A stretch of 56,665 nucleotides of DNA, from the IMG/VR virus record IMGVR_UViG_3300035039_000184; one strand, given 5' to 3'. The translations under genes were made by a program, and so were the position numbers. Under the pieces are notes generated by a model that ran no database searches, was not told the origin of the DNA, and worked only from the letters and a program-made list of their open reading frames with translations. The stretch comes from a virus. Below are positions 451 to 45,763 of this stretch, in pieces (position 1 is the first letter of the stretch; each line of letters opens with the position of its first letter).

Positions 451-972
451 ATGAATTTTCTTAGAATCAAAAATCCAATTTACATTGACTCTACAAGAAT
501 AGATTTAACTATAGAAACAGATGAAGGAGATTTACCCTTTACCTATGATCCTGACGATACAGAACAAGCCTCGCTTTGGGTAAAAGAAAATATTGACCTT
601 ACACAAGTTTCTCCATATGTAGCACCTGTATATCCTATTGAACTATTAAAAGAAAAGAAGAAAAACGAAATAGCCAACGCACGTTACGAAGAAGAAGTGT
701 CCGGCTATGTCTTCAAAGGTCAGACCTTTCACTCCGACAGGCAATCGCAGGATAGAATATTTCAGGCGTATATGGCGAGTCTTAATGACTCAACTTTTGC
801 ACAGACGTGGAAGACAAAGGATGGCTGGGCGGAAATGACTGCTACGGATTTTGTGAATTTGTACAACGAGTTCCAGACGTTTTTGCAGGGGTTATATCTA
901 AAAGAAAAGGGCCTTCAGGATCAGATAGATTTAGCTACAACTCCAGAGGAACTTAATCAGATATCATGGTAG
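451..972 (+). CDS. tail-fibre assembly/chaperone-like protein (DUF4376-like C-terminal half)
   Basis: SD aaggaggg lies 5 nt upstream and the gene directly follows the fibre gene. The pattern KNEIANARYEEEVSGYVFKGQTFHSDRQSQDRI...WKTKDGW..MTATDF resembles DUF4376 proteins found next to phage fibres. Confidence 0.5.
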   Translation: MNFLRIKNPIYIDSTRIDLTIETDEGDLPFTYDPDDTEQASLWVKENIDLTQVSPYVAPVYPIELLKEKKKNEIANARYEEEVSGYVFKGQTFHSDRQSQDRIFQAYMASLNDSTFAQTWKTKDGWAEMTATDFVNLYNEFQTFLQGLYLKEKGLQDQIDLATTPEELNQISW

Positions 973-1304
973 TTTTGTATTTACCTTTACTCTGGATACT
1001 GCACGAAGGTGGTCATTGGCTGGCATGTTACGTGATATGCAGAAAAAGTCTTAAGTTTACATGGCACTTTGAGTATGAGTTTATTCCGGTGGGACTTTGG
1101 TACATGCCACACGGACTTACGAAACATCAGAAGAACATAATATGGGCTTCAGGTTTTGGTCTTGAATTTCTGGCTATCCCCTTTTTACCTTGGGTATACG
1201 GGCTTTGTGCGGTAATACATTTTGCGACGTATTTTTTAAGGTGTGATAATGCAGAAGCAGAGTTTTGGTTAAGACTTTTAAAAATAGAGAGGTGGTTTAA
1301 ATGA
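966..1304 (+). CDS. small polytopic membrane protein with zincin-like HExxH motif (LHEGGHWLA)
   Basis: ATG overlaps the upstream stop (ATGGTAG). There are 3-4 hydrophobic segments, and HEGGH lies inside the first hydrophobic stretch, as in intramembrane zincin/M50-like or DUF3267-like proteins. Confidence 0.45.
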   Translation: MVVLYLPLLWILHEGGHWLACYVICRKSLKFTWHFEYEFIPVGLWYMPHGLTKHQKNIIWASGFGLEFLAIPFLPWVYGLCAVIHFATYFLRCDNAEAEFWLRLLKIERWFK

Positions 1305-1783
1305 GTGATCTGACAGCAAAAATGATAAAAGATGGAAACGGAGATCTTGTACCACAGTATTACGGAGCTGACGGCCAATTTCACGTACTTAAGGGTGGAG
1401 ACGGCAGCACCGGAACAACGATAACAAACACAAGTCCTATAGATGTAGAGGTTTCCAACACTTCACCAATAGACGTCAACACTTCCGTTACCATTGCCCC
1501 AGATACATTCGGAGCCGCCCCCGTTGTCGGACAGCACACAATAACATCTGTGGCATCAGAGGTGTTTGCAGATAGCTCGGCAAAGGCGAACCGCACGAGG
1601 ATGGAGATAACAAACATGGGTGACATAGACATCTACGTCGGTCCGTCAGGAGTAACAGCGGATAACGGGCTCCCCATCTTTCCACTTGAGACGAGGGAAT
1701 TCAAGTTCAGCTCCGACACTGCGGTAGCAATATATGCGATAAGCCCCGGCAAGTCTGTTGTATGCCGGGTACTGGAGGTGTAA
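1301..1783 (+). CDS. hypothetical virion-associated protein
   Basis: 160-aa ORF with ATGA overlap to the upstream gene. It has an internal NTSPIDV(E/N) duplication and a beta-rich composition. No family recognised. Confidence 0.5.
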   Translation: MSDLTAKMIKDGNGDLVPQYYGADGQFHVLKGGDGSTGTTITNTSPIDVEVSNTSPIDVNTSVTIAPDTFGAAPVVGQHTITSVASEVFADSSAKANRTRMEITNMGDIDIYVGPSGVTADNGLPIFPLETREFKFSSDTAVAIYAISPGKSVVCRVLEV

Positions 1784-1786
1784 GGC

Positions 1787-2044
1787 ATGGACGTTAAAGT
1801 TATGAGCATAGATGCAAAGAGCAAACCGGAGATAAACCGTGTGTCTGTCGACATCGATGAAAGAGGAGTAAAGCTTCACGGAGAGTGCAACGTATCAGGT
1901 AATGACGCTCAGGCAAGGATAGTTGCACGTGCCCTTGAAAGGGACATGAGAATAAACCACCATGCAAAGTTCCCGATACCCGAACCGGAGCCGATGGAAG
2001 AATTTGAAGAGATGGAATCATCTCTCATAAAGGAGGTAAAGTGA
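1787..2044 (+). CDS. hypothetical protein
   Basis: 85-aa ORF tightly packed between neighbours (3 nt after the upstream stop, 1 nt before the next ATG). Confidence 0.5.
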   Translation: MDVKVMSIDAKSKPEINRVSVDIDERGVKLHGECNVSGNDAQARIVARALERDMRINHHAKFPIPEPEPMEEFEEMESSLIKEVK

Positions 2045-2045
2045 A

Positions 2046-3326
2046 ATGACCGTACATATCCCTGAAGTAAAATGCGTCCTTGGTGAGTCGCTTGCAATGC
2101 AGGACGCGTGGCGTAGAGCCTTTGAGTCTGCGCTTGTTGACAGATTTAAAGAGCTCGGAGCAGACGGATTTGCGAGTGCTGACGAGCGGGCAGAGTGGAC
2201 TGCTAAAATGCAGATTCTCAGCGGTGGCAAGAATACTATAAAGTGGGTAAATGACGGAGCTACTACTCCATTATATTTTCCGTCCATCATGGTTAAATTC
2301 CCGGCCGTAAGGATCAAAGACGTTCTCCAGAACAGCACAAACGAGAACCTGCATCCAGCTTTCATCGTTGGTAGCACGATTTATCCTGAGTTTTACGCTG
2401 GCAAGTATCAGGCCTACAGCATAACATCAAACGCAAAGGATATCGGCCTGTCTCTTTACGGTGTGGACCCGAAAACGAGTATTGACTTTGATGACAGTTT
2501 TACACTGTGCGGAAACGGCGGAACGGGGCATCATCTCATCACAAACGCAGAGTGGGCACTGATTTCATTACTCGCAAAGAACATTAATTCGTATCAGCCC
2601 AAGGGCAACAACTCCTACGGCAAGGATTACCAAGACCCAGACGACCTGAGATACTACGGGATCCCTACATATATTAGTGGAGACAGAATAGCCCGTGTAG
2701 GTTGTGGAACCGGTCCGGTATCGTGGGCACATGATGGCACGCCGTGGGGAGTCTATGACTTAAACGGAAACATCTATGAATACTGTTCAGGGCTAAGACT
2801 CGGAGCTGGTGAAATTAACATCATCAAAAACAACGACGCCGCTGACAGCACAATAGATGTATCCCGTGATTCAGCACTCTGGCAGGGTATATTACCTGAC
2901 GGCACACTCGTTACTCCCGAGACTACATTTATAAGTGACTCAGATGAAACACCTACTCTCGATCCAGCTAACGCAACTTTAAAGTATGACGGAACTATGC
3001 CTATCTCTGTTGTGACAGCAATAACGGTAAGACATACAGGTACAGAATCATCGTCTAATCCATTTGACGATGTATCAGGTACGAGCCTGCCAGAGATTGC
3101 ATCAAGCCTGTGTGTTGCCCCTGAAGTGTCCGGCAACAACAAGCATGGCGGAGATTATTTTTACATGCGGAATCAGTTGAGCGGTAGTTATAGCGAGACC
3201 CTCGCTCGCCGTGGTGGCCATTGGTACAGTGTTAGCCGCGGGGGTGTGTTCAACCTCCTTCTGAGCGACACCCGGTCTAACTCGTCCATCACCTTCGGGG
3301 CTCGCCCAGCTTTTGTGAATCTGTGA
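2046..3326 (+). CDS. Mtd-like receptor-binding protein with FGE-sulfatase/C-type-lectin fold and DGR-type variable C-terminus
   Basis: Motifs HLITNAEWALISLLA, WGVYDLNGNIYEYCSG and RRGGHWYSVSRGGVFNLLLSDTRSNSSITFGARPAF-stop match the FGE-sulfatase/CLec pattern of DGR target proteins. The position after the fibre genes and before an avd-like ORF matches mtd in phage BPP-1. Confidence 0.75.
   Translation: MTVHIPEVKCVLGESLAMQDAWRRAFESALVDRFKELGADGFASADERAEWTAKMQILSGGKNTIKWVNDGATTPLYFPSIMVKFPAVRIKDVLQNSTNENLHPAFIVGSTIYPEFYAGKYQAYSITSNAKDIGLSLYGVDPKTSIDFDDSFTLCGNGGTGHHLITNAEWALISLLAKNINSYQPKGNNSYGKDYQDPDDLRYYGIPTYISGDRIARVGCGTGPVSWAHDGTPWGVYDLNGNIYEYCSGLRLGAGEINIIKNNDAADSTIDVSRDSALWQGILPDGTLVTPETTFISDSDETPTLDPANATLKYDGTMPISVVTAITVRHTGTESSSNPFDDVSGTSLPEIASSLCVAPEVSGNNKHGGDYFYMRNQLSGSYSETLARRGGHWYSVSRGGVFNLLLSDTRSNSSITFGARPAFVNL
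3205..3326 (+). other. putative DGR variable region (VR) with GC-rich IMH-like 3' end (ttcggggctcgccc, 3294-3307)
   Basis: It encodes the RGGxW...FGAR segment where DGR VRs lie. No matching template repeat was found, so the boundaries are approximate. Confidence 0.5.
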
Positions 3327-3348
3327 TCTGTTTTTGTGATTATCTGGT

Positions 3349-3606
3349 ATGGTTTTTGTTTTGGATAATCTAATAATCAGGAAAAAACTTGAGGATGTGA
3401 TAGAGTACGCTTATTGCGTCTTTAGGCATTTCCCTAAATCTGAGAGATTTACACTTGTTGCTGATATGAAGAGAAGCCTTGTGAAAATGCTTGAGCTGAT
3501 TATCCGGGCCAATAACTGGGCGTCGTTTCTGGGGTATATGAAGCACTGCTCGGGGATGATGACGGTTAGGGCCGCTGGCAGAGAAATGAAAATAAAATCA
3601 ACATAA
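3349..3606 (+). pseudogene. avd: truncated avd (DGR accessory variability determinant) remnant, possibly fused to the 3' tail of a deleted reverse transcriptase gene
   Basis: There is no SD. The first ~57 aa (LIIRKKLEDVIEYAYCVFRHFPKSERFTLVADMKRSLVKMLELIIRANN) match the Avd four-helix-bundle consensus (FPKxE(K/R)FxL...IRAN). From ~3515 the sequence switches to WASFLGYMKHCSG.., which resembles a DGR RT C-terminus. Full Avd proteins are ~110-130 aa. Confidence 0.65.
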
Positions 3607-3607
3607 G

Positions 3608-3636
3608 GGCAGGAGCCTTCGGGCTCCTTTTTTATT
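3608..3636 (+). terminator. rho-independent terminator
   Basis: Stem aggagcc/ggctcct with loop ttcg, followed by tttttatt. Confidence 0.7.
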
Positions 3637-3662
3637 TCCCGAAAAAGAGGGGAGGTGTTCTC

Positions 3663-4904
3663 ATGGTTGGAAGTATCGATCCGATGTACGAGCTCTGGAG
3701 ACAGACCTTCCTCAATAGTGGGTATTCAAAAACTCCCACTGTTGATGGACAGCCGTACTATTTTTCTATAGATCCCATCGAGATGTACAAGATCGAACAG
3801 GAAAAGAAGGAAGAGGAAAAGAAAAAAGAGACAGGCAATTCAATAGATCCCATGCAGAGAGAATACGGAAGAGGCCCGGATCTCGATAAATACGGCAACA
3901 GGATGGACGCAAGGGATACACCCTATGCCTACGAGCCTGAATACTGGCATTCCGATGCCTGGGCTCCGGATTACTCTCTGGGCGATTACGCGAAGACGGC
4001 AGGATACGGTCTCGGACTCCTGAAGACCGGGAAGGGGCTTATGTCAAATATTCTCGGGCTTAATCCATTGAGCAACCCTCTGAACGATCCTGGGAATATC
4101 GAGGGCATAAGTCAGATGGGCTCTGCCTACGGATTCGATCCTGACCTGATGAAGACTGCAATTGCAAACGTTTACGCAGGTCCAGGAAGCTCGGACGCAA
4201 AGGCTCCATCTGGAATTCTCGACGGAATTATCGGAGGATTTTCCGACATAGCAAAGGACGGACTGTCTGGTTTTGGAAACTTCACAGATGCGGAGATCTT
4301 CGCAAACGACACAATAAGAGGTCTTCTCGGAATGACCACAGACAAGTGGGGCGATTACAACTGGGCAGATATGGGCTATACCACTTTCGATCCGGCAAAG
4401 GCAGGGGCCGTAAACTGGGGGAACATAGATCCTCACAACGCGAGCCAGCTCATGGATGCCTACGAAGCGAGGTCAGAAAGGACCGGAACAGGAATGCCAA
4501 GTCCCATTGAAGTTGGAATACATTCGAGACTTATAGGAGACGAGCCATATCCGGGATTCAAGAAGCTCATGGAGGAGCGGCTCGCAAACTCCGACGACGG
4601 AGATCCCACAAATAACGCAGGATTCAAACAGGCGGCAGCTGCAAAAGCGGCTAAAGACTCAGGACTGAATGACATGATGGATAAGCCGCTCGACCAGTGG
4701 GACAACGACACGATAGACAACTACATAGACAGGAGAGCAGATCTGCAAGATGACGGAAAACGGAACAGCAGCAATAACAACGGTGGAGGAAACGGCGGAA
4801 GTAACACCAACTCCGGAGGCAACAACAGAGGAAGCGGAAGAGGTGCTTCTGTTGGGGTAGGATCAAACGGACGAGGCAGCGAGGGAGACTATGGGTTCCA
4901 TTAA
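3663..4904 (+). CDS. hypothetical internal-virion/ejection-type protein (low complexity, G/N/S-rich C-terminus)
   Basis: SD ggggagg is upstream. 413-aa ORF with a compositionally biased tail (NSSNNNGGGNGGSNTNSGGNNRGSGRG), located upstream of the giant gene. Confidence 0.5.
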   Translation: MVGSIDPMYELWRQTFLNSGYSKTPTVDGQPYYFSIDPIEMYKIEQEKKEEEKKKETGNSIDPMQREYGRGPDLDKYGNRMDARDTPYAYEPEYWHSDAWAPDYSLGDYAKTAGYGLGLLKTGKGLMSNILGLNPLSNPLNDPGNIEGISQMGSAYGFDPDLMKTAIANVYAGPGSSDAKAPSGILDGIIGGFSDIAKDGLSGFGNFTDAEIFANDTIRGLLGMTTDKWGDYNWADMGYTTFDPAKAGAVNWGNIDPHNASQLMDAYEARSERTGTGMPSPIEVGIHSRLIGDEPYPGFKKLMEERLANSDDGDPTNNAGFKQAAAAKAAKDSGLNDMMDKPLDQWDNDTIDNYIDRRADLQDDGKRNSSNNNGGGNGGSNTNSGGNNRGSGRGASVGVGSNGRGSEGDYGFH

Positions 4905-4916
4905 GAGGTGAATTAA

Positions 4917-5186
4917 ATGGCAGGAATATTTGAAACTCTTTTTAAAACGCAGGAGGGCAAGAAATATCTAAGCCAGAACCCTTCGGATGGAGGATTATCT
5001 AATGATAACAATCCTGGAGGTTATATGCCACCCACAGTCGATTGGTTTCATAACTTTCGTCCTGGCTCTACTAAAACAGGACCTCCTGATCGTAGTATGC
5101 AAGAAATGGTAGATCTATTTAACATTCCTAAATATACTCAAGATGTTCTACATGCACAGCCAACTTACATGACCAACGCTACCTGA
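4917..5186 (+). CDS. hypothetical protein
   Basis: 89-aa ORF with SD aagaggtga upstream. Confidence 0.5.
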   Translation: MAGIFETLFKTQEGKKYLSQNPSDGGLSNDNNPGGYMPPTVDWFHNFRPGSTKTGPPDRSMQEMVDLFNIPKYTQDVLHAQPTYMTNAT

Positions 5187-5255
5187 AGAACTCCGGCTCC
5201 AGCCAACTGGACAATAAACTCCTTCGGGAATAACACATCATCGGGAGGTGATTGA

Positions 5256-7525: not shown

Positions 7526-10500
7526 ATGGATTATCTCGACGAAATAATAAGAAAATACGAGAGGGGGTCGAATGTATCGGCTCCCTCTTCTTCTTTTGAG
7601 AGGAAGGATAGGGAGAGACGGGAATCAGGAGATATCATCGACGAAGTTATAGACGGATACGAGACCGACTCTGCTTCAGGAGGTTCCAGGTTCAACTGGG
7701 ATCGTCCAGATGTACCAGAGGAGATGGACCGTACTTTAAACGACGTAATGTCAGGATATCCCGAATTTCCGTATCCATCAGGCATAGATCCAACCAGTGG
7801 AGACACTGATGAAAAAGAGCGAAGACTTCCCTACGGTACTGTCCTTGACAAGGATGTTCTCGCAGCGGATGCTGCCGACATGCTGATATCAAAATCAGGC
7901 AATGTGTCTCCAATTTCGGGACTTCCCGTTGATGAGAAAGAACCACTTTTCGGAGAGACAGGAAAAAAGATAGAGAAGGCATTTGGAGACAAGGGAATGC
8001 AGACCTTTTCAGGAATTCTCGGATCTGCGGGGGCCTTTGCAAGGAATGTGGAGAGGCTCGCTAATCCGGAAAATGAGCGAATAGAGGCTCCGGTAAATCC
8101 GGGAGTGCTTGGAACGGACGGCCAACTACTGAAAGGGATAGGAGACCGTGATCCCTACGAGAAGAAGAACACCATATTCAAGGCAGCAAAGGCAACAGCT
8201 GATTTTCTCGAAGAGGGGAATGAGCAGATACAGAAAAACCTCCTTCAAGGAGAGGACCCCACATTCTGGGATAAGGTTTTCAACGGAATAGGCTCAAGTG
8301 CCTTCTTTCTCGTTCCTGGAGCTCTTGCAGCAACGGGAATCGCAACGGCGGCAAAGTTCTCTCCGAGCGTGGCAAAATGGCTCGGTGCCGGTGTAGGCGG
8401 AGTAATGGAGGGCTTTGCAGATGCAGGAACCACATACAAGCAGGTACTTGACGACGGAGGGGACTTTCAGGACGCAAACGCAGCAGGCTCTCTTGCCTTC
8501 TGGATGAATGTGCCTCTTGACGTGATAACCGACAAGCTCGGTTTCTTCGGGGATAATAAGGCCACAAAAAGCTTGATAGCAAAGTCTCTCAGTGTCTTCG
8601 TGAAGAACCCGGCACTAAAGAACACCATGTCAAACGTGGCCGGAGGAATGGCAGGAAGAGGGCTTAACGAGATGTTCCAGGAGGGTGCACAGAACCCGAT
8701 CCAGGAGACTCTCACAGAAAAAGCTCTGGAGAAGTCAGGCAAGGGGACCCTGACATGGGCCGACGCTGTTAAGGCAATGCCAGAGATATCGGAAAGAGTA
8801 CCGGAGAGTATATATAACGAAGGGCTTCCGGCCTTTGTCTCTGCCGCAATATTTGGACTTCCAACTCATATGATGCAGATGGATCAGGAGCAGAGGGTGG
8901 AAGAAGAGAAATCGGCAAGAGAGAAGACCGTACAGGAACAGAGAACGAAGGGAATAATGGACGAAGCCTTTGAATCTGTTACGGGAATACCTTCAGGAAC
9001 AGAGGTCCGGCCAATAGTGGCAAAAAGAGACGAGGACATTTCCAGCCCGAGTGCTGGTGATGCTGTTGGAACGTACCTTGAGGGCGAGAAGGCCAAAACA
9101 ATAGACGCGGCCATAGACAAAGTTGCTGGAACACAGCAGGAGGCAGACGTAGCCAGATCCGAAAGATGGGCCGGTACGGTTGACGCTGTTAACGCCGTAA
9201 ATAAATATCTTGACGAGATGGAGCGTCAGCAGCAGGAACAGGACAAAAAGGAGAATGAGCCAGTCCAGAACGCAAGAAAAGACCTTCCTCAGGACATGCA
9301 GGATAATCTGAACGTTAACGATCTTGAGGGTCAGGTTCTTAAAAGATACAACAAGGACATGGACTTTCTCCAGGATCTCCAGAGAAGAAGAGAGGAACTT
9401 GGAGAGCAGGGTTATCAGGATCTGCTCAAGACTGCACTCAATAACCCGAAGGTGTATTCGGACTTCCGGAACAGGCAGAAACCTGTCCAGAAAGAAGAGC
9501 CCGTGAATCAGGATACCGCAAGGGCCGAAGAGATTGTTACCCCTGAAATCGAGGGGGAAAATGTCCAAGAGGTTGAAAAGCCTTCAGAGCCGGAGTCAAT
9601 CAAAAAGGGCGAAGTTGGGCAGAAACTCGGGTCCGGTGAAGTTGTCCTGACATCAACTGGCAGAAAAACAACTCCCTTCCCGAAGGTAGACATGTCCACA
9701 AACAGAAAAGCCGCCAACACAGTCAAGCGAGTTGACAGATGGCTTATCCAGAACGCCATCAATGAAGCGGAGCAGAGGGGAGACGAGTTTAATCTTTTGC
9801 AGTTCAGGGGGTCTCTTGATAATCCATCTCAGGCGGACAAGGACAGTGCTGCATATTATCTTTTCGACGAAGAGTTTATACAAAAGCCTGATCCTAAGAT
9901 TTTAAAGGACATGACCAAAGAACAACCATCGAAGTCAACAGACGATATTAAGCCTGGAGATACAGTATACCGCAAGGATAACGGTCAGGCCCTTGAGGTG
10001 GTAAATGCCGATGATCCTTCTCTTTTGACTGTGAAGCACCCAAAAACAGGGACACAGTTCCAGATGGGGAAAGGAACGGTCGAACTTGCTCCTGAAGGCC
10101 AAAATTTAGCTCCTGAGTCAATTCCCGAACCAGAGCCGACAAATACCCCTGATAAGGGGGATACAGGACGAACTGAGCCAGATATTCAGGCCGAGGGTCA
10201 AAAAAGAACCATCCAAGACCTCCAATCATTAACCTTTGACACCATCGAAATGGGTCATTGGGATAAGGAAACAGAGGGTGTCGGAAAAAACAAGGGAATT
10301 AAATACAGAACTGCCAAATATGCTGCCATTGACAGGGACGGCAAAGAGAGAATTTTCCAGGTCAAGGTTAGCAGTAACGGCAAAACTCAGGTTAAACCTC
10401 TTGGGAGAACCGACAGCCAAAAGGATGCTGATGACCAGTCAGAGTGGAGCAAGGTGCCAGAAGATGTACAAAGACTTGTAAATCTTCATTGGCCTGATCT

Positions 10501-13500
10501 GAACCTTTCGCAAAAAGCAACGATAGGGAAGATTGCTGCAGGGTTGCCAGTAAATGAAATGACTGCAAATGCTGTTCTTGGTGGGTCCGCAAGAAACAAA
10601 ATGCTTGAGCTTTTCCCGAATATCAAGACACTTGAAGATGGGAAAAGGGCTTTGCAAGAATACGTCCGACTAAAGAGAGAAGAAAAGAGTTCCGATATTG
10701 AGGCCGAGGGTCCAGGATTTACAGGTCTCGTGGGCGAGAAGACGCCAAGGGCTCTGGAGTCTCTCAAGCAATTGCTCGATGATCCCAATGCTGTCCATCT
10801 TAAAGGCAGATCCCTTAAATATGTAGAAGAAGACGGCAAGGGCTATTATGAAGACGAGGAAGGCACAAGGATGCCCGACTGGACCCCAATTCCGGGGAAT
10901 CCTGGATATTCCGCAAGGCAGTATGTCCGTGACAACACTCTTGAACCTGCCAAGGCAGTGCAGGAAGTGATGATAAACGAAAACGGAGCCATTGCCAGAA
11001 GGGTCTACAGAGACGGCGAACAGGAAGCCTATGGAGGATTTGAGGCAGAGGACAACCTTAAAAACTTCATGGCAGGAAAACCCTTTGAGGCGTTTTTCGA
11101 CTTCTTTAACCAGAAGCCTGATCAGATACAGGCCCCGGCGGAAGAAGCTCCGGAAGCAGCGCAGCCAGAGCTCACGGACTACCAGAGACAGAGGGAAGAG
11201 AACAGCAAGGCTGCCGATGAGGTCAGGACCTTGCAGACCAAGGGTCAGAACTCCGTTCCCGGCGTGAGGATCGAAGCTGCCGAAGAAGCCGGAAGGATGA
11301 GAGGTCTTCTTGAAAGCGGAGAGATCACCCAGGAAGAGTGGGACAGCTACGTTCAGGATCTCAAGGACTCCGGGAAAGTGGAAGCAGATGAAAGTGAGTC
11401 CAGTCCGGCAGAGAAAGAAACCTTGACCTACAGCCATGAAGATATCACGAGAAAAACTTACTCAGAGGGAGACCTTGTTCGCTTCCGCAAATCTATGGAC
11501 AAGAGCCCGAGAAAGATCGTGGAGATTGACAAGTCAGGGAAGGTCAGGCTTGAGGGTTCGGATGTATTGCGCGACACAGCCGAAATCGTTAAGGTCTCCG
11601 AAGAAGGGCAATCGGAGCAGAAGCCGGCTAAAAAACAGAAGAAATCACCGGCGAAAAAACTAAGGGGAGATTTTTCCAAGATCCCTGAGAAATACGCGAG
11701 CAAGATAGACACCGGAGAGAATATGGACGAGGACTGGGCTCGAAAGCAGGCTTTCATGGACGACGCAGCCAACTATCTCAGGAGCCTTGGAAAGGATCTC
11801 GGGTGGGAGCCATATCGAGGCAAAAACGGCAAGGGAAGCATTGTCAATAAAAATCCTTCCGGCCCAGCCACGAAGGGGAGCGTATCTGCTACATTCTTTG
11901 TGCCTAACCGGGACGAGGGCGTGTATATAACAATTGACGCAGATGGATCTAACATTTCCGGAGTAAAGTCCGCACCATACGGAACTCACATAATGTGGAG
12001 ATCCACCACGAGAAAGGATCCGTTCGGAGGAGGAACCAACCGTTTCGAGAATTGGGATATAACCACAGATGCCCTTTCATCCACTATAGAATCTGAACTT
12101 GACAGTGTAATTGCCAGAAACGACGGGAAAGCACAATCTCAGAAAAGTGATACAATAGTAAACAAAGGAGAGGGGGTAATCCCTAATGAGCCGGAAAGAA
12201 CTGTTAACGGAGATCGAGAAAGAACTGAACAAGAGAGCCAGCGAGGAGGACAGGAGCTTCCTGATGGCGGAGATACCGAAGGCGGAAGCGCTGTTGCCGC
12301 AGGCGGACGAGAACAGCCAGTCTTGGAAGACTCTGGTCAGAGGGCTGACGAAGATGTACGCGGAGCTGAACCTCCAGCTCGGGATGGTGTGCGAGAAACT
12401 GAACTATCCGACGAAACAGTGGGAATGGAAGGACAGCCAGCCACTGAGGATACTGGCGAGGAGCTACCATGGAATAGAGGCAACGGACTGGTACCAACGT
12501 CAGCTCGGGATGATGCTGACGCCACAGGACCATCCCTGGTATCGGATAATTACGACCTAAGAAACAAGGAACCTGTTCTCCTAACTAAGGGAGAAAGAAG
12601 GAGAATAAACGACCAGGCAAGGGAGCTTCTAAACAAGAAAGAGCCACTTACGGAAGACGAAAAGGACATCCTCCGGCAGTATACCGGGGAGGGTGGTCTT
12701 TCATCCGGATCTGTAGAGGCTTTAAATCAGCACTATACAGACTACCAGACCATAAGGGCAATATACGGAGCCCTGGAAAGGTCTGGTTTTTACTTTGAGA
12801 AGGCTCTTGAACCTGCTGTAGGCTCCGGAAACTTTATCGGCAACGCCCCAAGGGGTGTTGACTGGACCACAGTAGATATCGACAGCACAAATCACCAGAT
12901 AGCATCAAAACTGTATCCAGAGGGTAACCATTATCTTCTTTCCTACGAGCAGTTCAAGAAGAGTGGTTTTGACCTTGTTATATCAAACGTTCCATTTCTT
13001 CAGGAGCGAGGAGCAGGGGGGCTTAAAGTCAGGCCGGATATACAGACTCTTCACGACTTCTATTTCGTTCATTCTCTGGACAGGGTTAAGGACAACGGCA
13101 TTGTGGCCTTTATAACGTCCAAGGGAACCATGGACAAGAAGAATTCCTCCGTCAGAAAGGAGATCGTGGAAAAGGCCGATGTGCTTGGAGCCTTCCGTCT
13201 GCCTGGAGGGCATTTCGAGAAGAACGCCCATACCTCCGTTATAACCGACATTATTTTTCTGCAGAAAAGGCCCGAGGGGGCTGTGCCAAGTTCGGAGCAG
13301 AAGGCCATAAACGATTCTTTCGTTAAGGCAACGGAAACAGGGGATGGAATAGTTCTCAACAACTACTATCATGACCGTATGGAATCCAACTTCCTCGGAG
13401 AAGTGGAGGTTGGGAAGGATAAAGCGAGGTTCGGAAAGATCACCTACACCATAAACGGACAGGCAGACCTTTCCCGGATCGACATAGGACCCTATAGGCC

Positions 13501-16500
13501 ATACAAGATCCAGAAGAAGGAAAAGGCTGCTCCTGAATCCGTGGATGTTGACGAAATCCCGAGAGACTCCAAGGACTTCCAGAAATGGGCCTCTGAAAAC
13601 GACATCCTTACCCGTCAGAATATAACGAGGACGGGAACGGATCGAGACGGAAACTCCTTCGAGATCAAAGAGAGAGACCCCGGATTTTCCGAGAACATCA
13701 TCATAGAGTCTGATGCGGTGTACGCAGTGGATAAAGTCATAGACTTCGAGGACGTATCTGGCTCCGCAAAGATATACCGGGAGGTCTCATACAAAGAGAG
13801 AGACAGGATAAAAGATCTCGACTGGATAAGAAGAGACGCAGCTTCCTTTCAGGAGACATCCGATCCGAAGTATGCAGAGAGCGGAAAGAAGCTTATAGAG
13901 AGCTACCGGCAGATTCACAAGGTCCATCCTAAAAAAGACAAGAAGCTCCGGAAGATTTTCAAAGATGCAGGAGAGCAGACACTGTTTGCCGAGCTCTCGT
14001 CATTCTTTGACGAGGACTTCAACCCAGCTCCTGTCCTGGATATACAGACAAGATATTCGGACAGCGGAAGAGCAGAGGTCACAGATGATTCTCCTCTTTC
14101 CATAAGAGCCTTCGCAAATGAGGATAACAAGGGGATTGTCGATATCTCAAAAGCAGAACACCTCTCAATGGACGAACTCGGAGATCTTCTTCACAGTGGC
14201 TATTCCCTTGTTTCCATGGGCGAAGAAGGGGCTGTTGTCCAGAACGACGTGCTCTACTACTCAGGCAACATATACAGCAAAATAGAGAGCGCGGAGAAGA
14301 TCAAGAAGGACATCGAACTCGGCAGAGTTGACGACGGTCACGCAATTGGAGAGAAGCTCGACGAGCAGATACGAAGCCTTGAGGAGATAAAGCCATCTCC
14401 GAAGACTGTTGACGACATCAACTTCAAGGGAAACGAGAACTGGCTTTTGCCCATAATCAAGAAATACGGGATATGGGATATAGACAGCTCCTACGACAGG
14501 AAGAGCGGAAAGATCCAGTACGAAGCGACAAACGCAAGGGGCTTCCCTGACAGTGTGTACTCGAACTATCTTAACAACAATGTCCTCATAAAAAGAGACT
14601 TTGACCAGAGGACGCAGATGCAGGAGCCCATATCCTCATATCTGTCACGCATGAGAGAGGCCGAGGAGCACGTGACGGAGGTCGTGGAGACCATAAAGGA
14701 GCGGATCAAGAGTGATCAGCAGGCTGCCGAAGAGATAGAATACGCCTACAACTCCAAGTTCCGCGCCTACGTAAAACCCAACTACTCAAGAGCCCAGTAT
14801 CTTATTCAGGACGTTCTGAACGAGATAGAGGCAGAGTCCGTCAATCCCAAGGAAGCCGGACAACCGGTAAAGCTTCGCAAAAATCAGATCGAATGGATCA
14901 TCCAGGCGGTATATGAGGGCAAGGGAATAAACGCCCATGATGTTGGCGGAGGAAAGACCTTTGCCTCGATTGCGCTCGCGAGGGTGCTAAAAAAGAGGGG
15001 AATAGCCCACAAGCCTCTCTTCGTCGTCCCGGCGAAGACTATCAACAAGTGGGAGAGGGACATAAAGACGCTGTTTCCGAAAGCCAGAGTCCTCAACCTC
15101 GGACAATTGAGCAAGAACAAGAGGACAGAGCAGCTCTTTGAGCTGGCGAACAACAACTTTGACTATGTTGTGATAAGCCACGAGGGGTTCAAGGCGATAA
15201 AGCTTCCACTCGACACGGAGATGAAATATTTCGACGACGTTGTAAACGAGCATATCGACGATCCGGATATGAAGGGGAGTCAGGCCGCAAGGAACATGGA
15301 AAAGATAGAGAAGTATCGCACGGTCCTGAAGGAGGCCGAAAGAGATTCAAGGCTGACCTTTGACAAACTGGGAATAGACGCGATCATAGCCGACGAGGCT
15401 CATGCCTTCAAGAACATAGGCATACGGGGAGAGTTGAACAAGTTCGGGCTCGGGGCAGCCTTTGGATTCAGCAACCGGCAGAAAAACAGAAAGGATCCAA
15501 AGACCGGAAAGATAATGTACGGAGAAAACGGCAAGCCGCTGAAAGAGGATTCCGTATCGCTCATGTCCTCAAAATCCTACGACTTCCGGTTCAAGTCCAA
15601 CTGGATCATCGAGAACAACAACAATAAGAACGTATTTCTTCTCACTGCCACTCCGACGCCCAACAAACCCATGGAGATATACACCATGCTGAGACACCTC
15701 GGCAAGGACATCTTTGACGAGTACGGACTTGGAAGGGACATCGACTTTTCGAACAACTTCTTCCATCTCGGAACGGTGCAGAAGCCCGACGACCCCGGAC
15801 AGACCAAGAACGTCCTCTCCGCCATAATCAACGCCCTTGAGCTGAGGGGGATACTGAACCGGTACGTTGACAAGATATCCATAGAGGATATGCCATGGAT
15901 AAAGATCCCGGAGGCGAAAGAGTATCGCCAGTTCCTGAACATGTCAGAAGGATACCGGCTGATCGCCGAGGATCTTGCTGAAAGGCAGTCTCGCGCCGGA
16001 AGCGGAAGAAAGGGAGCCGGAGAAGACAACATCATTGCCATATACTCTGGAGGAAGAGCCGCCTCTGTCGACCCGAGGCTCTACGGAGGGGAACACGCAA
16101 ACGTTGAAGTTGACGTTAGGTCCTACGATCCTGGCGACGACAAGATCCAGTGGACCATCGAATCCGTGGCGGAGGTTGCTAAAAAGAACAGAAAGGCGGG
16201 GCAATTGATATTCCTCGACAAGGTGGGCTGGGAGCAGATCGAAAACGAGAAGCTCGCAGAGGACATGCACAGCGAGATAAAGAGTTCCCTCGTGGATATG
16301 GGGTTCAAGGAGAAGGAGATCGCCATAATCAACGGCAAGTATGTAACCAACCCCAAGACCGGAAGAGAGGTTGCGAGCGGAGACAAGAACCAGAGGAAGC
16401 AGGATATTGCCGACATGTACAACGAGGGCAAGGTCAAAGTAGTCATAGGATCTACCGACTCCATGGGAGAGGGCATGGATCTCCAAGTGAAGACCACGGA

Positions 16501-19500
16501 CATATATCACCTCGACATTCCCTGGACTCCCGGAGGATTCCGTCAGCGAAACGGCAGGGGCCTGCGGTTCGGAAACGAGAATGATTCCGTAAACATCCAC
16601 TATCTTCTCATGAGGGGGACCTTTGACGCCATAAGCATGGACGTTGTGATGCACAAGAAGGGATGGAACGAGGCCCTCTACGACAAGGAGGACGCCGACG
16701 TAATTCCCACTGCCGAGGAAATGGCAGGAGGGGCTATTCCTCCAAGGGAGCAGCTTCTTATCGAGCTTGAGACAGACCCGATAAAGAAACAGCAGCTTAT
16801 ACTGAGCTTCGACTACAAGAGGATGCAGGGAGAGCTCGGAGAGTACAATCAGGCTGCCTACCGAATAAGGAACCGTATCAGCACCGCACGAGAGGCGATA
16901 AAGGCCAACAGGCTGAGGCTCCAGGAGCGAGAACAGAAGCTGAGGGAGTCCAGTCCCAACGAGAAGATAAAGGACGAGAAGAAGCGTAAGGAACAGCACG
17001 AGAAGAGCAAGGCTTTTCTCAGAAAGGGTATAGAGACGTCCAAGAGGAAGATTCAGGAGATCGAGGACAAAATAACAACTCTCGAAAAGACCCTGGATGA
17101 GCTTGGAGAAAAGGCGAGAGACGCGAACGAGAGAATAAGCAGGTTCGAGGAAAGCTACCTCGACGAGGAGAAGAACTTCAGGAGAGACGTAATCGAAAGG
17201 CTTGCGGCAACAGAGGACAACCTCGACAACTCTCCGGCTCCGGACGAGAATTCCGGGACGGACACTGCCGAAGAGTTAGACCCTGACGAGGAGGTAACAC
17301 GGAGGATCAACGAAGCCTACGAGGAGAAAACTCCACCTGCCGGAGCCTCTGTCAAGTTTCTCAGGCCGGACGCTCTCATAAAGGCCCTGGACAGCAGAAA
17401 AAAGAACCAGGGCGTCAACGACTTCTTTGTCAAAAAAGACAAGAAGAAAAAGGACAGCGAGAGTGATCCCCGGACCTTCGAATTCACCGACAAGGAGATG
17501 GAGAAGGCCCACAAGGCGTACTCAAGGGGCATCGACAAGGAGAGTACGTGGAGCAAACTGCTTGAAGCCTTTATGGACATGAAGAACCGATCCACAAGGA
17601 CATTCCGGCACCTTCCGGGCGGAGCTCCCTTTGCCGTGGCAAGACATGTGCTGCTGCAGCTCAAGAGGACTATTCCTTCGGCACAGATGGACGCTGAAGA
17701 GAAGATAAGCGCCATTCTGACCAAGGAGACATCCGAGGGGATACAGCTCTACGATCGCACTGACCTGGACCTCTTCACGAGAAAGGTATATCTCGAGGAT
17801 TTTGCGAGAGACGCCAGAGACGGACTTTCACTTCCGGAAGGATACACTGAAGAGAACGTCAACGTGGAGCTCCAGAGGTTAAACGAGCACCTCAGGGAGA
17901 ACGCGCCCTGGATCCTCGACAGCTACCGACTGAGAACGGAGATGTGGAGAAAGGCAAAGAAGGAGTACATACGACAGGCAGGCAGGGCCGGAACGGACAT
18001 GTCCAAGAAGTTCACCAAGGGAGACTCCTATTTCCGTCATCAGGTCCTTGCTCACATGATGGACCAGGGAAGGTCCATATACGGGACCGGCAACAAGCTC
18101 AAGTCACCGGTTACGAGGGGTTTCCTGAAGGAAAGAAAGGGCTCTGAGCTTCCCATAAATCTCAACTACGCCCAGGCGGAATTCGAGGTTCTTGCTCAGA
18201 CCCTTGCGGATACCCATGTATGGGAGACAATCGCGATCATCGACGAGAACTACAGCATAACCGACAGGCTCAAGAAGATGGCTGTCGAGATGAACAACAA
18301 CAACTTCAAGGGGCTTATGGAGGAGCTCGTAAGGATAGAGCAGGGAGTCAAGACGGTGGACGAGGACGTCAGACACGAGGCCCAGAAGAGGATCAACAAG
18401 CTTTCCCAGAAGCAGGCCATAGCTCTCTCCCGGCTCAGCGAACTTGCAGCAATGGGAGAGCTGCCGACAGGCCCCAAGGGACAGTTCTCCCGGATCGTGC
18501 AGGAACTCGGCGATTACTACATGCTGAAAAAGGAGAACAAGAAGGACGACGTAGATGTAGGCAAGGTCAAGTTCAGTCACAAGGAGCTCATGAAGTACCT
18601 GTCCTGGCTCTCGAAACAGGAGGGAGACGGACAGGAGACCATTCTTTCCAGGACCTTCTTCAAGGGCGTGGCCGAGAAGAAGAAGGCTATAAAGGCCACC
18701 CTGAAGGCAGGAGATATCAAGGAGGTAAACTGGAAGGACCTTGTGCCAGACGACTACACCATATATCAGCCGAGGGAGGGTTCCGTCTTCTACAAGGCAT
18801 ACACCATACCGGAGCAGATGGCTGAGAGCATAGCCTCAGGTCTGCTCACAGGGCTGGACCTCACTCCCAACCAGGTCAAGGCCGTTCTCGCAAGAGGACC
18901 GAGGCACAAGGAGATGTGCATACCGACTCCACTTGCCGCGACCCTGGAGGAACTTAACCCCATGGGCTCAAGGAAGGAAGGGCCCTTTTCCGAGCTCTAC
19001 CATACTGGCATAAGGACCCTGAAGAAGTTCTGGCTATACGGACCTACAAGGTGGGTAAAGTACGCCTTCAGAAACCTTACCGGCGACTCAGAGGCCGTGG
19101 TTCTCGGCAGACAGTGGGACACTCTCAATCCGAAGCACCTCAAGAGGGCTACATGGGAGCTCTACCAGGCTGTTATGGCCCATCGAAAGCCGTCCAAGGA
19201 GTTCAAGGACTGGGCCCAGATGGGCGGATTCATGACCTTCGACAGGATCCAGGAACTTGGGGAACTCAAGGCACTTGAGAGGCTGCAACACCTTGAGGTC
19301 CCGGACGAGAGAGCCCTTTCGAAGATCAAGGACAAGACCTGGGACCGCTACTGGAGGGCCATCGACAAGGCGGAAGGAATAAGGGAGGGAGTTCTCCGTT
19401 ACGCCAGCTATCTGTCCTATCTCGAACAGATGGAGAACAACGAGAACGGAGAGCCGAACAACTTCGGAGCATCCAACCGAGATGAGATCATGGCCCTGCC

Positions 19501-23251: not shown

Positions 23252-23516
23252 GACTTTTCCCGAAATCGAGGACGCAAAGGAGACATTTATGGACAAGATC
23301 TTTCCTCTCATGGAGAAAAGGTTTTGCTCGAAATGTCCTTATGCACGTATCAACCGTGCCCACTGGGACGATTATTTCGGAGGAAGTCCGGAGGAGTTTG
23401 AATGTCTGAGAAAAACGGAACCGGGAGACCGGGGCTGCTACTTCGAGGACAACGCAAGAGAAATAAGAAGCAAGCTTGAGGAGGTTGGAGAGTTATGCAG
23501 GAAACTGATGTATTAA
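23241..23516 (+). CDS. hypothetical Cys-rich small protein
   Basis: SD gggaggagg is upstream of the ATG at 23241 (an internal start of ORF 23184..23516). Contains CSKC...C...C, a possible zinc site. Confidence 0.5.
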   Translation: MVIETFPEIEDAKETFMDKIFPLMEKRFCSKCPYARINRAHWDDYFGGSPEEFECLRKTEPGDRGCYFEDNAREIRSKLEEVGELCRKLMY

Positions 23517-24787
23517 TCCAGAGCCCTTCCGAAAAGCGTGAAGCCTATCCCTACAACGAGAAATATTTCTACACGGGCAAACGTTTCGGAGACGCACTGG
23601 TATTGATGGAGACAGGCAGAATGGGTCACGAGGAATGGGAGGCCATAAGAACGGATCTTCCCTGTATCGGGGGATCGGACGCAGCTACGGTGCTCGGATA
23701 CAACAAGTACAAGTCCCCCATGATGCTATGGAGTGAACTTTCGGGAATTACCAAAAGACCACGAAACGATGATCCCTCTACATACTGGTATCCGTTCATT
23801 TCAGAACCGGCCTACTGGGGGCATGTCCACGAACCCCAGATAAGAAACACCATCAAAGGGATCCTCGAACCTCGGGGGTGCAGGATTGAGCAGAGAAACG
23901 CAATCCTTACACATCCGGAGCACAAGTGGATGATATGCGACCTTGACGGAGTTATCTACGCTCCGGCGGAGGGAGTGAAAGTGACGGACTCCACGGGAAC
24001 GGATTTTGTCCTCGAAGGCAGGGGAGTGCTGGAGTGCAAGTCGGCCTCTGAATATCTCAAGAACGAATGGACAGGCGACGATCTTCCGATGGCCTACTAC
24101 ATTCAGGTTCAGCACAATCTCGCAGTAACGGGGTTTCAGTGGGCCATCGTTCCGGCTCTTGTGGGAGGAAACCGTTTCAACTGGAAGGTTATCCCCAGAA
24201 GCCAGGAGTACATCGACGCAATAGTCGGAGTCGAGAAGAAGTTCTGGCACGAGCATTACCTCGCTTCCGAGCCTCCGGAGCTCGACGGATCGGCGGCCAC
24301 GGAGAAGTGGCTGAAGGAACAGTATCCAGAGGACCTTACCGATGATGTTGTAGTGGCCAACGAGGAGCTCGACGAGCTTGCCAGGAAATATACGGAAGCG
24401 AAGGCAAGGCTCGAAGAGCTCAAGAAAGAAGAGGCCGAATACAAGAACAAGATCATCCAGCAGATAGCAGAGGCTCCCGGAGCAAAGGGATCCAGATACA
24501 AATGGACCCTGAGCTACAAGAAGGGCAAGGATTCCGTCAAAACTACCACGGACTATGAGGCCGTAGGGAAAGAGATAGAGGACGGAGTTCCCGAGGAGAT
24601 CATCGAGAAACACACGAGGGTCACCACCTACTGGGAGGACGTAGTGAAGGAAATTCTGGACTCGGAAGAGGACGGCCCATTGAAGGATATCGTTTCGGAG
24701 ATAGTTGACAAGTATTCCGAAAGCAAGGTCACGAGAAAGGGATCCAGGACATTTCGCTTTAACTGGGAAGATGAGGAGGTGGCATAA
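23495..24787 (+). CDS. YqaJ-like (lambda Exo-type, PD-(D/E)xK) recombination exonuclease with C-terminal coiled-coil extension
   Basis: IGGSDAATVLGYNKYKSPMMLWSELSG and DLDG...GVLECKSA match the YqaJ viral recombinase motifs. It is adjacent to recT. Confidence 0.8.
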   Translation: MQETDVLIQSPSEKREAYPYNEKYFYTGKRFGDALVLMETGRMGHEEWEAIRTDLPCIGGSDAATVLGYNKYKSPMMLWSELSGITKRPRNDDPSTYWYPFISEPAYWGHVHEPQIRNTIKGILEPRGCRIEQRNAILTHPEHKWMICDLDGVIYAPAEGVKVTDSTGTDFVLEGRGVLECKSASEYLKNEWTGDDLPMAYYIQVQHNLAVTGFQWAIVPALVGGNRFNWKVIPRSQEYIDAIVGVEKKFWHEHYLASEPPELDGSAATEKWLKEQYPEDLTDDVVVANEELDELARKYTEAKARLEELKKEEAEYKNKIIQQIAEAPGAKGSRYKWTLSYKKGKDSVKTTTDYEAVGKEIEDGVPEEIIEKHTRVTTYWEDVVKEILDSEEDGPLKDIVSEIVDKYSESKVTRKGSRTFRFNWEDEEVA

Positions 24788-25729
24788 ATGGCAGCCACTA
24801 ACAGAAACGGGAGCAAGGAAGAGCTTGAGAAACTGAAGGAAAAGGCCGGAACCGAGCTTGAGGCAACATCCAAGTCCAAAGAAAACGCCAAGAACTCTCC
24901 TCTGAAGAGTTTTAAGGCCACAGTGGACCGGATGAAGGGCGAGATCGAGGCGGCTCTGCCTCAACATCTGAAGGCAAACTCGGACAGATACGCCCGGAAT
25001 ACCGTAACTCTGTTCTCCCAGAATCCGTCATTGCAGCTTTGCCGGCCAGTGACGATCCTGGGAGCTATGATGACAGCGACAGCATTAGGGCTGGACCTTT
25101 CCCCTCAGTTGGGACAAGCATACATCATCCCTTACCAGAACAGCAAGTATATGAACGGCAAGTGGGAGAAAGTCTGGGAGGCTCAATTCCAGTTTGGATA
25201 CAAGGGCCTTGTGGCTCTCGCTCATCGCAGTGACAAGATAGCCTACATCGCAGCTCATCCGGTCTACGAGAAGGACGTTTTCGACTACTCCTACGGAACG
25301 AAGGAATATCGGGTCCTGAAGCACAAACCGAGCCCTCTTCCTAAGAAAGAGGACCTCGAAAACAAGGACGACAACCACAGGGGAGATATTAAGTTCTACT
25401 ACGCAATCGCAGAGCTGACAAACGGCGGAGAGAATTTTCTGGTCTGGCCACGAGTGGACGTTATAGCTCATGCCAAAAAGTTCTCCAAAAGTTACTACAA
25501 GTGGGACAAGTCTGGCAACCGGACGGTCAATTCCAACTCCCCATGGGTAAAGGATGAGATAAGCATGGCCCAGAAAACCCTTCTTATCCAGCTTTGCAGA
25601 TATCTTCCGGTCTCCGTTGAGCTCGGCAAGGCCATAGCCCAGGATGAAACAACGAGGGATGATCTGAGTCTGCTTGAGAGGGAAAAGGACATCATCGACA
25701 TTACGCCGTCAGATTCACCGGCGGAGTAA
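24788..25729 (+). CDS. recT: RecT-family single-strand annealing protein
   Basis: 313-aa ORF immediately after the exonuclease gene. RecT-like core (QFQFGYKGLVALAHRSDKI..., WVKDEISMAQKTLL). Confidence 0.75.
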   Translation: MAATNRNGSKEELEKLKEKAGTELEATSKSKENAKNSPLKSFKATVDRMKGEIEAALPQHLKANSDRYARNTVTLFSQNPSLQLCRPVTILGAMMTATALGLDLSPQLGQAYIIPYQNSKYMNGKWEKVWEAQFQFGYKGLVALAHRSDKIAYIAAHPVYEKDVFDYSYGTKEYRVLKHKPSPLPKKEDLENKDDNHRGDIKFYYAIAELTNGGENFLVWPRVDVIAHAKKFSKSYYKWDKSGNRTVNSNSPWVKDEISMAQKTLLIQLCRYLPVSVELGKAIAQDETTRDDLSLLEREKDIIDITPSDSPAE

Positions 25730-44597: not shown

Positions 44598-44963
44598 ATG
44601 GGAAGAATTATCATCGACAAGGCAGGAGAAAGTTACGAGGGGTGCATTACTAACAATCCTGACTACAATCCATTGAACCTCACAAAGACTCCTGTCCCTG
44701 AAGCTGAACGCAAGAAACAGATTGAGAAAGCGGAGAAGGGAATTGAAGACCAGCTTGGTCCTGAACTACTCGAAAGACTGAAGGATGAGGGACTTGCACT
44801 GCTTGTCGAGCTCATAAACAACGGACCGGCATATGTCGAGGCAAACCTCGAAAACCTTCCGATGGACCCCACAAGGCCGGCAAATGCGAGCAACAATCCT
44901 CTCCAGGTCGGGCTTTCGATGAGCCTTACCAGGGACAGCGAGGAAAGCGAGGATCCCGAATGA
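44598..44963 (+). CDS. hypothetical protein
   Basis: ATG at 44598 with gaagggag 9 nt upstream. 121 aa. Confidence 0.5.
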   Translation: MGRIIIDKAGESYEGCITNNPDYNPLNLTKTPVPEAERKKQIEKAEKGIEDQLGPELLERLKDEGLALLVELINNGPAYVEANLENLPMDPTRPANASNNPLQVGLSMSLTRDSEESEDPE

Positions 44964-45763
44964 TAACTATCATAGCAGGGGAAAACCAGACCTTCATCTT
45001 TTGCGACACCGAAGAGGAGAAAAGCGCGGAAGTACTGAAGGGGCTCGGAAAGGAGATCATAGAGATGGCAGAGGACGAGGAAAGATTTGAACACGCCGGA
45101 GAGATAGGCGACCAGGAAGAGGGTGGATATTCCGAGTGCATAGAGTCGGAATATGACAAGAGGATCTACCAGGAAGACCTTCATCTCGACGGAAGACCTG
45201 AGTATATGAGATTGTTGAAGTTCCAGGGGAACTTTGCGGACGCGGTACATGCCATGCAGAACGGCCTCGCTGTTCGAAGAAAGTCATGGGGAGACGACCA
45301 GTGGCTTGAGATGATGGACACCGTGGGAGCACACGACGACATCTACGTGAACGACGTTCTTATAGTCAAGTGCCCGAACGAGACCTACGACTGTTATCTC
45401 GCGACCGATGAAGACCGGTTCGAGGTGGAGGACTGGGGCCTTGTGGGAGCTCTCAAGTACCGCCTCAAGATGGAACAGGAGAAGTACCGCGAGGACATCG
45501 TTACAGACGACGAGAAGAGGATCCTCGGAAACTTCATAAAGTCCAGGAAGTTCTTTCATAACTACATCATGGAAAGAGGCAGTCATGTGCTGTTCTCCAC
45601 AGACGCCAGACAGAAGCTGTTTGAGGAGATATCTTCAATATATATCCGTGAGAACGTTGAGGAGATAGCCTACCAGACGGGCAAGATCAGCGACAAGGAC
45701 CTGTGGCTGGACTGCGTGATGGCCTCGGATATAGGAAATGAGAAAGGAAGGAATGAGAAGTGA
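44960..45763 (+). CDS. DUF2829 (Tad2-like) domain-containing protein
   Basis: Residues ~88-163 (nt ~45225-45450): NFADAVHAMQNGLAVRRKSWGDDQWLEMMD...YLATDEDRFEVEDWGLV fit the DUF2829 pattern F..A...m..G..v.R..W...D....DW..v. Extra N- and C-terminal regions are present. Confidence 0.6.
   Translation: MITIIAGENQTFIFCDTEEEKSAEVLKGLGKEIIEMAEDEERFEHAGEIGDQEEGGYSECIESEYDKRIYQEDLHLDGRPEYMRLLKFQGNFADAVHAMQNGLAVRRKSWGDDQWLEMMDTVGAHDDIYVNDVLIVKCPNETYDCYLATDEDRFEVEDWGLVGALKYRLKMEQEKYREDIVTDDEKRILGNFIKSRKFFHNYIMERGSHVLFSTDARQKLFEEISSIYIRENVEEIAYQTGKISDKDLWLDCVMASDIGNEKGRNEK

Follow-up and report, generated by a model that had tools for sequence, protein, structure and literature searches.

Very likely decay of a diversity-generating retroelement in an SU10-like phage by a single old deletion, followed by recombination onto different variable regions

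The diversity-generating retroelement (DGR) of the phage genome studied here has very likely decayed through a single old deletion, after which recombination appears to have brought the deletion allele next to different target genes and variable regions (VRs). The genome is IMG/VR record IMGVR_UViG_3300035039_000184, and its whole stretch of 56,665 nt is referred to as the window. An intact target gene is followed by a chimeric open reading frame (ORF) in which the 5' part of the accessory gene avd runs into the 3' end of the reverse transcriptase (RT) gene, and related cassettes allow the lost segment to be delimited.

Results

Target gene and variable region

The target gene (2046..3326, + strand) encodes a 426-aa protein, probably a receptor-binding tail protein, and both this gene and the shorter ORF downstream (3349..3606) are present as claimed in an earlier note on this DNA. 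A profile of the target family (25 sequences) matched PDB 5VF4 with an E value of 5.5e-78 over chain residues 13-384/385, a sequence-profile comparison that covers the C-type-lectin domain as well as the VR-bearing C terminus. 5VF4 is TaqVP, a DGR variable protein of Thermus aquaticus with a C-type-lectin fold (PMC6328139), and because the match is nearly full length, we consider the target a genuine DGR-type variable protein. The homology extends to the C-terminal VR segment (...RGG.W..G..AG...L.L...R....GARPAFV), although TaqVP is chromosomal and belongs to the complete DGR of a thermophile, whereas the window gene is part of an SU10-like phage's tail module and has had its DGR deleted. The protein also matched phrog_2889 (E 2e-82). 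A precomputed match to the Pfam family FGE-sulfatase (PF03781) is present in several of its 598 homologues, but its own score for this family is below threshold (E 0.013, 15.6 bits; gathering cut-off 23.3). The FGE-sulfatase/C-type-lectin signature noticed before holds as regards the C-type-lectin family, by way of 5VF4, and not as a PF03781 assignment of the window protein itself. Likewise, the label "Mtd-like" is right in pointing to a C-type-lectin-type DGR variable protein, the fold being common to both proteins, but the target is nearer in sequence to TaqVP than to Mtd, and "TaqVP-like" is the better label.

At the 3' end of the target gene lies an orphan VR (3200..3311, +), which aligns without gaps to the template repeat (TR) of L007, a relative present on a partial contig. 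Substitutions confined to TR adenines are the classic signature of a DGR. The L007 TR (L007:541-655) and the VR of the same contig disagree at 19 of 29 adenines but nowhere among the 83 other internal positions, and the window VR departs from the same TR at 16/29 adenines versus 8/83 other positions, which bears out the VR-type C terminus proposed for this gene. The VRs of relatives also depart from that of the window mostly at TR-A sites. Several of the eight non-adenine differences (TCG; CGG TCT; CCCAGCT) are shared with related VRs or TRs and thus reflect a slightly different ancestral TR, not decay; TCG and CGG TCT, for instance, are among those shared with L008, L009, L017 or the L003 TR. 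The C-to-A change in CCCAGCT, which might have been taken for post-deletion decay of the GC-rich element, is present in both the TR and the VR of L017. This IMH-like element (GGGGCTCGCCCAGCT; 3297..3311, +) forms the 3' end of the VR. No stable BPP-1-like hairpin was found 3' of the VR (-2 kcal/mol, z = +1.0).

Chimeric ORF and deletion junction

The 5' part of the 85-codon ORF (3349..3515, +; codons 1-55 plus 2 nt) encodes the N-terminal half of the accessory protein. Its residues 1-55 are 100% identical to the N terminus of the 115-aa Avd of L007 and L017, and likewise to that of P0123, a full-length Avd of a relative that matched the structures 4DWL (BPP-1 Avd; E 5e-6) and 8UB7 (E 4e-5). 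The ORF scored above the cut-off of 40 for PF22296 bAvd (E 3e-12, 47.3 bits) and matched phrog_3206, "Avd protein of DGR" (E 1e-13). In the Pfam alignment, residues 8-56 fall on profile positions 1-49/107, so the ORF holds only part of the four-helix-bundle domain of ~107 positions; Avd proteins of relatives measure 111-115 aa. The 3' part (3516..3606, +) comprises the last ~30 RT codons in the RT frame, with the stop codon. This tail (WASFLGYMKHCS / WASFLGYMKHCSGMMTVRAAGRE) aligns to residues 331-356 of the 366-aa L003 RT (WASFLGYMRHCSSLSTVR; pairwise E 4e-10), the C terminus of which reads ILKQVWASFLGYMRHCSSLSTVRVAYEETLNILKEDDN, and to the L017 RT tail VWVSFVGYMKHCSSLITVK. A terminator-like hairpin (AGGAGCC-TTCG-GGCTCCT, 3611..3628) and a T-run follow, the whole spanning 3611..3637 (+) and belonging to the conserved deletion allele. 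The recognition of the first part of the ORF as Avd and of the second as an RT end agrees with the earlier description of an avd fragment of ~57 aa fused at ~3515-3520 to an RT-tail-like sequence and followed by a terminator.

The extent of the loss can be read from L017, the closest relative with a full cassette, a 13-kb JGI contig with a target 90% identical to that of the window. The window is 100% identical to L017 from the 3' end of the VR to 3480 and is the same as L007 up to 3449. It tracks the L017 avd through ...GC(C/T)AATAA and re-enters at ...CTGGG in the RT gene, which places the junction AATAA/CTGGG at 3515..3516 (+) and makes codon 56 chimeric. The absent 1,428 bp (L017:1986..3413), a multiple of 3 that keeps the frame, correspond to the 3' half of avd, the TR, a spacer and the RT codons to ~330. 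This single gap shows that, as proposed, one deletion took out the second half of avd together with the TR and most of the RT gene. A microhomology-mediated deletion was considered and rejected: no bases are common at the junction in comparison with L017, and AAATGCT, which occurs on both sides, sits at different offsets and off the junction.

Relatives with complete cassettes

Complete cassettes occur in L017, L007 and L003, the last representing a more distant lineage. In L003, the order is target (411 aa), avd (111 aa), TR and RT (366 aa, RVT_1), followed by an amidase. The comparison with genomes that keep avd-TR-rt, which the earlier note had called for, yields the ancestral state from L017 and L003 and identifies the 85-aa ORF as an avd/RT chimera. 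Control contigs with a complete cassette (L003/L004, L005, and L006) are identical over 2.2 kb except for 15-20 VR positions; a few further sites differ within the TR and at the 3' end of the RT gene.

The RT frames of L017 (L017:2400-2950) and L007 (L007:760-930) share a conserved in-frame TGA ('GE*IST') where L003 has TGG. In L017, a second in-frame TGA lies upstream and no ATG, GTG or TTG is found in frame before 2944; the frame is open for ~348 codons. These features could mean that stop codons are read through, that translation starts at a non-canonical codon or that the RT was disabled recently.

The L017 TR (L017:2196-2310; JGI 3300005882, Ga0080455_1003625), with which L018 agrees over the part that it holds, has only 11 adenines, compared with 29 in the L007 TR, and shows VR-like random bases at former AAC/AAT codons. 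The five positions at which this TR and the L017 VR disagree are all TR adenines (0 non-A). It looks like a TR that was overwritten by a mutagenized copy, via VR-to-TR conversion or cDNA homing into the TR, and that later still wrote the VR.

Template and RT search in the closed genome

The genome (~56.5 kb) is closed: the first 127 nt of the window recur as its last 127 nt, and a second, independent contig measures 56,536 bp. An adenine-tolerant scan of both strands of the whole genome detected no TR, only an A-rich chance region; tblastn of the L003 RT and the L007 RT fragment on the genome gave nothing below E=1 except the tail; and no RT families (Pfam/PHROGs) were found among the 26 major ORFs scanned. 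In other words, of the RT the window contains the terminal codons and no catalytic domain, and it contains no matching TR. The claim that the closed genome has no TR or RT thus stands, apart from this tail. The family scans of the major ORFs describe an SU10-like phage (portal, adaptor, TerL, and capsid) that also has methyltransferase and replication loader genes. RecE-like and RecT-like genes are located at 23495..25729.

Spread and age of the deletion allele

The identical junction, AATAA/CTGGGCGTC, occurs in L008, L009, L019, and L020, which come from other samples and have target genes that are only 84-86% identical. A metagenome contig scan for junction carriers gave L009 only, and further carriers were found via protein cluster look-ups. 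The exact junction was not found in IMG/VR viral contigs, and a DNA search with window 1300..5200 against 50,697 phage records returned no match. From the junction through the RT tail to the terminator, the window, L009, L019, and L020 agree at 100% identity. The terminator-like hairpin is identical in L008 as well, although the L008 copy of window 3498..3597 (the junction and most of the RT tail) is only ~73% identical, from which it follows that the deletion allele has had time to diverge. The shared junction and the divergent RT tail of L008 contradict the idea that this DGR was caught just after inactivation. The RT remnant is diverging freely.

Within the window clone, the VR is uniform. 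Four further contigs from four other samples match the window over 3.5-6.3 kb with 0-1 mismatch, no VR differences exist among the five assemblies, so that ongoing variation is absent at the assembly level, and the 426-aa protein is the sole member of its 90% identity cluster. In contrast, the VRs of the window, L009, L019, and L008 are all different, making four VRs on one junction. The description of the VR as frozen is therefore apt for this clone, as far as the assemblies show, but fails across contigs with the same junction. The window and L008 VRs differ at 18/29 A-type sites and 16/83 others, and the L019 VR has changed from an L007-type TR at 26/29 A sites and only 1/83 non-A positions, compared with eight for the window VR. 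The VRs on the deletion allele were thus written by at least two TR types. A single deletion event can have had only one TR; at least one of these VRs must therefore have joined the allele afterwards.

Traces of such exchange are visible around the junction and in the target gene. The avd fragment of L019 is a mosaic, first L008-like, then unique, then L009-like, and reaches full identity with the window no earlier than ~10-30 nt ahead of the junction. L009 contains a short foreign patch with 8 differences in 23 nt, the sequence around it being identical, and window 2101-2300 forms a 200-nt block at 100% identity to L008, compared with 82-86% over the rest of the target gene. Short-patch recombination is frequent in this phage population. 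Recombination with cassette-bearing relatives is our favored source of the VR diversity on the deletion allele, a conclusion drawn from the mosaic blocks and not proven for each case; we favor it because of these blocks, the RecE/RecT genes and the existence of full-cassette relatives with identical flanks.

Recurrent decay in the clade

Three further independent in-frame avd::RT-tail fusions were identified at the DNA level in L014 (309-566), L015 (4932-5099), and L016 (845-1090). In L003 coordinates, the breakpoints run from 3145 to 4588 in L014, from 3082 to the last RT codons in L015 (where the right breakpoint is placed at these codons only, not to the base), and from 3169 to 4621 in L016. 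Between 8 and 25 terminal RT codons remain behind avd in these fusions, each of which runs 11 nt into the start of the following gene (by annotation, a GH108 endolysin in L016). Possibly, this overlap is the reason why the last RT codons were kept in these contigs. L021 (1057-1305) and L022 (1169-1372) were rejected as RT-tail fusions, being other avd truncations without an RT tail. The left breakpoints of the independent avd truncations in these five relatives all fall within L003:3082-3176, approximately the middle third of the 111-codon avd, a clustering that may be partly an effect of the search that recovered the relatives.

In L001 and L002, a VR bearing the adenine signature is present but no avd, TR or RT lies within 8 kb, so that the cassette has either been lost wholly or lies far from the target. 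Both are IMG/VR UViGs (JGI 3300042257) with targets 88% and 76% identical to that of the window, respectively, and their VRs (L001:9156-9284 and L002:9093-9227) fit an L007-type TR. In both, another gene starts immediately after the target stop codon. In L001, this gene encodes a small HExxH membrane protein; the window has a homologue (31% identity, E 2e-8) that precedes its own target gene, at 966..1304.

Discussion

We propose that the ancestor carried the order target(VR)-avd-TR-spacer-RT, as in L017 and L003, and that avd codon 55/56 came to adjoin RT codon ~331 through a single non-homologous deletion of 1,428 bp that kept the frame. All that mutagenic retrohoming needs would have been lost at once, namely the C-terminal half of Avd, the RNA template and the catalytic domain of the RT, after which the VR would no longer be rewritable in cis in this genome and the receptor-binding tip would be fixed. 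The deletion would have arisen once, and not recently, and junction, RT tail and terminator would travel together as a single allele through a phage population that recombines and in which complete-cassette relatives are present as well. Recombination, probably aided by the phage's own RecE/RecT, would have put this allele beside different target genes and VRs. Taken as a whole, this history of a decayed DGR, with a single old deletion and subsequent recombination onto different targets and VRs, is in our judgment very likely.

Two observations count against it. First, the samples of the window clone yielded no relative with an intact cassette. Second, L009 shares the junction, and between flanks identical to the window for ~110 nt upstream and ~170 nt downstream, it differs from the window almost solely in the VR, at ~23 positions that are nearly all TR-A type sites; this is also the footprint that homing in trans would leave. 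Conceivably, the orphan VR is still being diversified by TR cDNA of a co-infecting full-cassette relative that homes into it. The acceptor end, consisting of the IMH-like element and the downstream flank, is intact and shared with L017 and L007 as far as indicated above, and two TR types stand behind the VRs of one allele. Moreover, avd-TR-brt supplied in trans works experimentally for BPP-1, as cited in PMC5758913, which makes such homing mechanistically plausible. Still, one VR is present in all five assemblies of the clone, the single-member cluster of the 426-aa protein offers no VR-only variant, and no full-cassette relative was recovered from the same samples as the window clone. The breakpoints between VR and junction are directly visible and sufficient to explain the data. 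A DGR acting in trans, which the earlier note had put forward as an alternative, is therefore not needed, and we regard it as rather unlikely. That orphan VRs are live acceptor sites, rewritten in trans by avd-TR-RT relatives upon co-infection, is likewise doubtful. If it were true, DGR-minus phages would profit from the hypermutation machinery of their relatives without carrying it, and the repeated keeping, by independent deletions, of the first ~130-200 nt 3' of the VR would represent selection for acceptor competence.

The 85-aa ORF might also have been retained as a functional protein, e.g., a two-helix piece of Avd that acts in a new way or interferes. Its reading frame is open in all five contig types (the window, L008, L009, L019, and L020), the independent avd::RT-tail deletions seen at the DNA level are all in frame (4/4), six avd truncations keep roughly avd codons 1-37 to 1-68 (L003 coordinates), and the avd part of L019 has 13 nt differences but only one amino-acid change. 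However, the tail shows no conservation between the window (CSGMMTVRAAGREMKIKST) and L008 (CSSLRTVRKAAEDLQGYFT), and the synonymous bias in the avd part can stem from recombination donors with a working avd. Counted over all truncations, in-frame events amount to 4/6, which is not significant against the expected one third, and the clustering of left breakpoints arises in part from a search query of only 55 aa of Avd. Considering also that avd is wholly absent from L001 and L002, we think a retained function improbable and infer that the chimeric ORF is a leftover and not a working protein. An assembly artifact, or a working DGR missed elsewhere in the genome, is extremely improbable: aside from the general risk of repeat (TR/VR) collapse in assemblies, nothing speaks for it, and such a collapse would not fuse avd codon 55 to RT codon 331. 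Independent assemblies from at least five samples, made with different pipelines (JGI and Logan), gave the same sequence, and both the whole-genome tblastn and the adenine-tolerant scan were negative.

The decayed DGR that we favor resembles the BPP-1 DGR (mtd-avd-TR-brt) in that the full-cassette relatives of the window share the order of a target with a C-terminal VR, avd, TR, and RT, in that their accessory protein is homologous to bAvd (P0123 versus 4DWL and 8UB7), and in that their TR/VR differences are adenine specific. It differs from the BPP-1 system in that the window is devoid of the Avd C-terminal half, the TR and the RT catalytic domain, has a target that is TaqVP-like and not Mtd-like in sequence, and forms no stable post-VR hairpin. 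Decay of this kind has precedent. Among crAss-like phages, some genomes keep complete DGR cassettes, while in others "the RT gene was fragmented or deleted" (PMC11054128; PMC12386605). There, too, the DGR decays beside a receptor-binding protein gene and within one phage group, whereas the window belongs to another lineage (SU10-type portal, adaptor) in which the ancestral state and the exact breakpoints are resolved and the allele can be traced from a single origin onto different VRs. Given that cassette decay in phages has been reported, the present case is a new, well-resolved instance of a known phenomenon. What goes beyond the literature examined here is the single-origin allele beside several VRs from more than one TR type, the repeated avd::RT-tail deletions, and the adenine-depleted sibling TR.

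The window thus provides a clean example of how a phage loses targeted hypermutation, with the ancestral cassette, the breakpoints to the base, the single origin of the allele and its later history readable from public assemblies. At the population level, loss of the machinery does not lock the receptor-binding tip, as evidenced by one allele with four VRs and at least two templates. Ranging from complete cassettes through an adenine-depleted TR and several independent internal deletions to outright loss, the clade constitutes natural material for asking when a DGR is worth keeping. Of note, a recent theoretical study models only the loss of TR adenines and names RT inactivation as unmodeled (bioRxiv 10.64898/2026.02.18.706561). 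With respect to annotation, an 85-aa "bAvd" match beside a lectin-type tail gene should not be taken as an active DGR.

Other features of the genome

A single ORF of 4,360 aa (7526-20608, +) takes up 23% of the genome. It shows SNF2/ResIII/Helicase_C matches at residues ~2450-3016 and a weak Eco57I-type methylase match at ~1800-1884, and its position in the virion module suggests a giant injected protein of the anti-restriction type. The window further encodes a protein with a Tad2-like (anti-Thoeris) domain (44960-45763), a DHH/DHHA1 phosphoesterase directly upstream of the portal gene (46119-47069), and, immediately downstream of the capsid gene, a homing endonuclease of the LAGLIDADG type (51752-52681). 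A perfect 135-bp tandem repeat of 2.4 copies (56336-56665), which continues into the 127-nt terminal overlap (1-127), lies within a tail-fibre-like gene (...LDADLLDG... motif), and its copy number in the assembly may be collapsed or variable.
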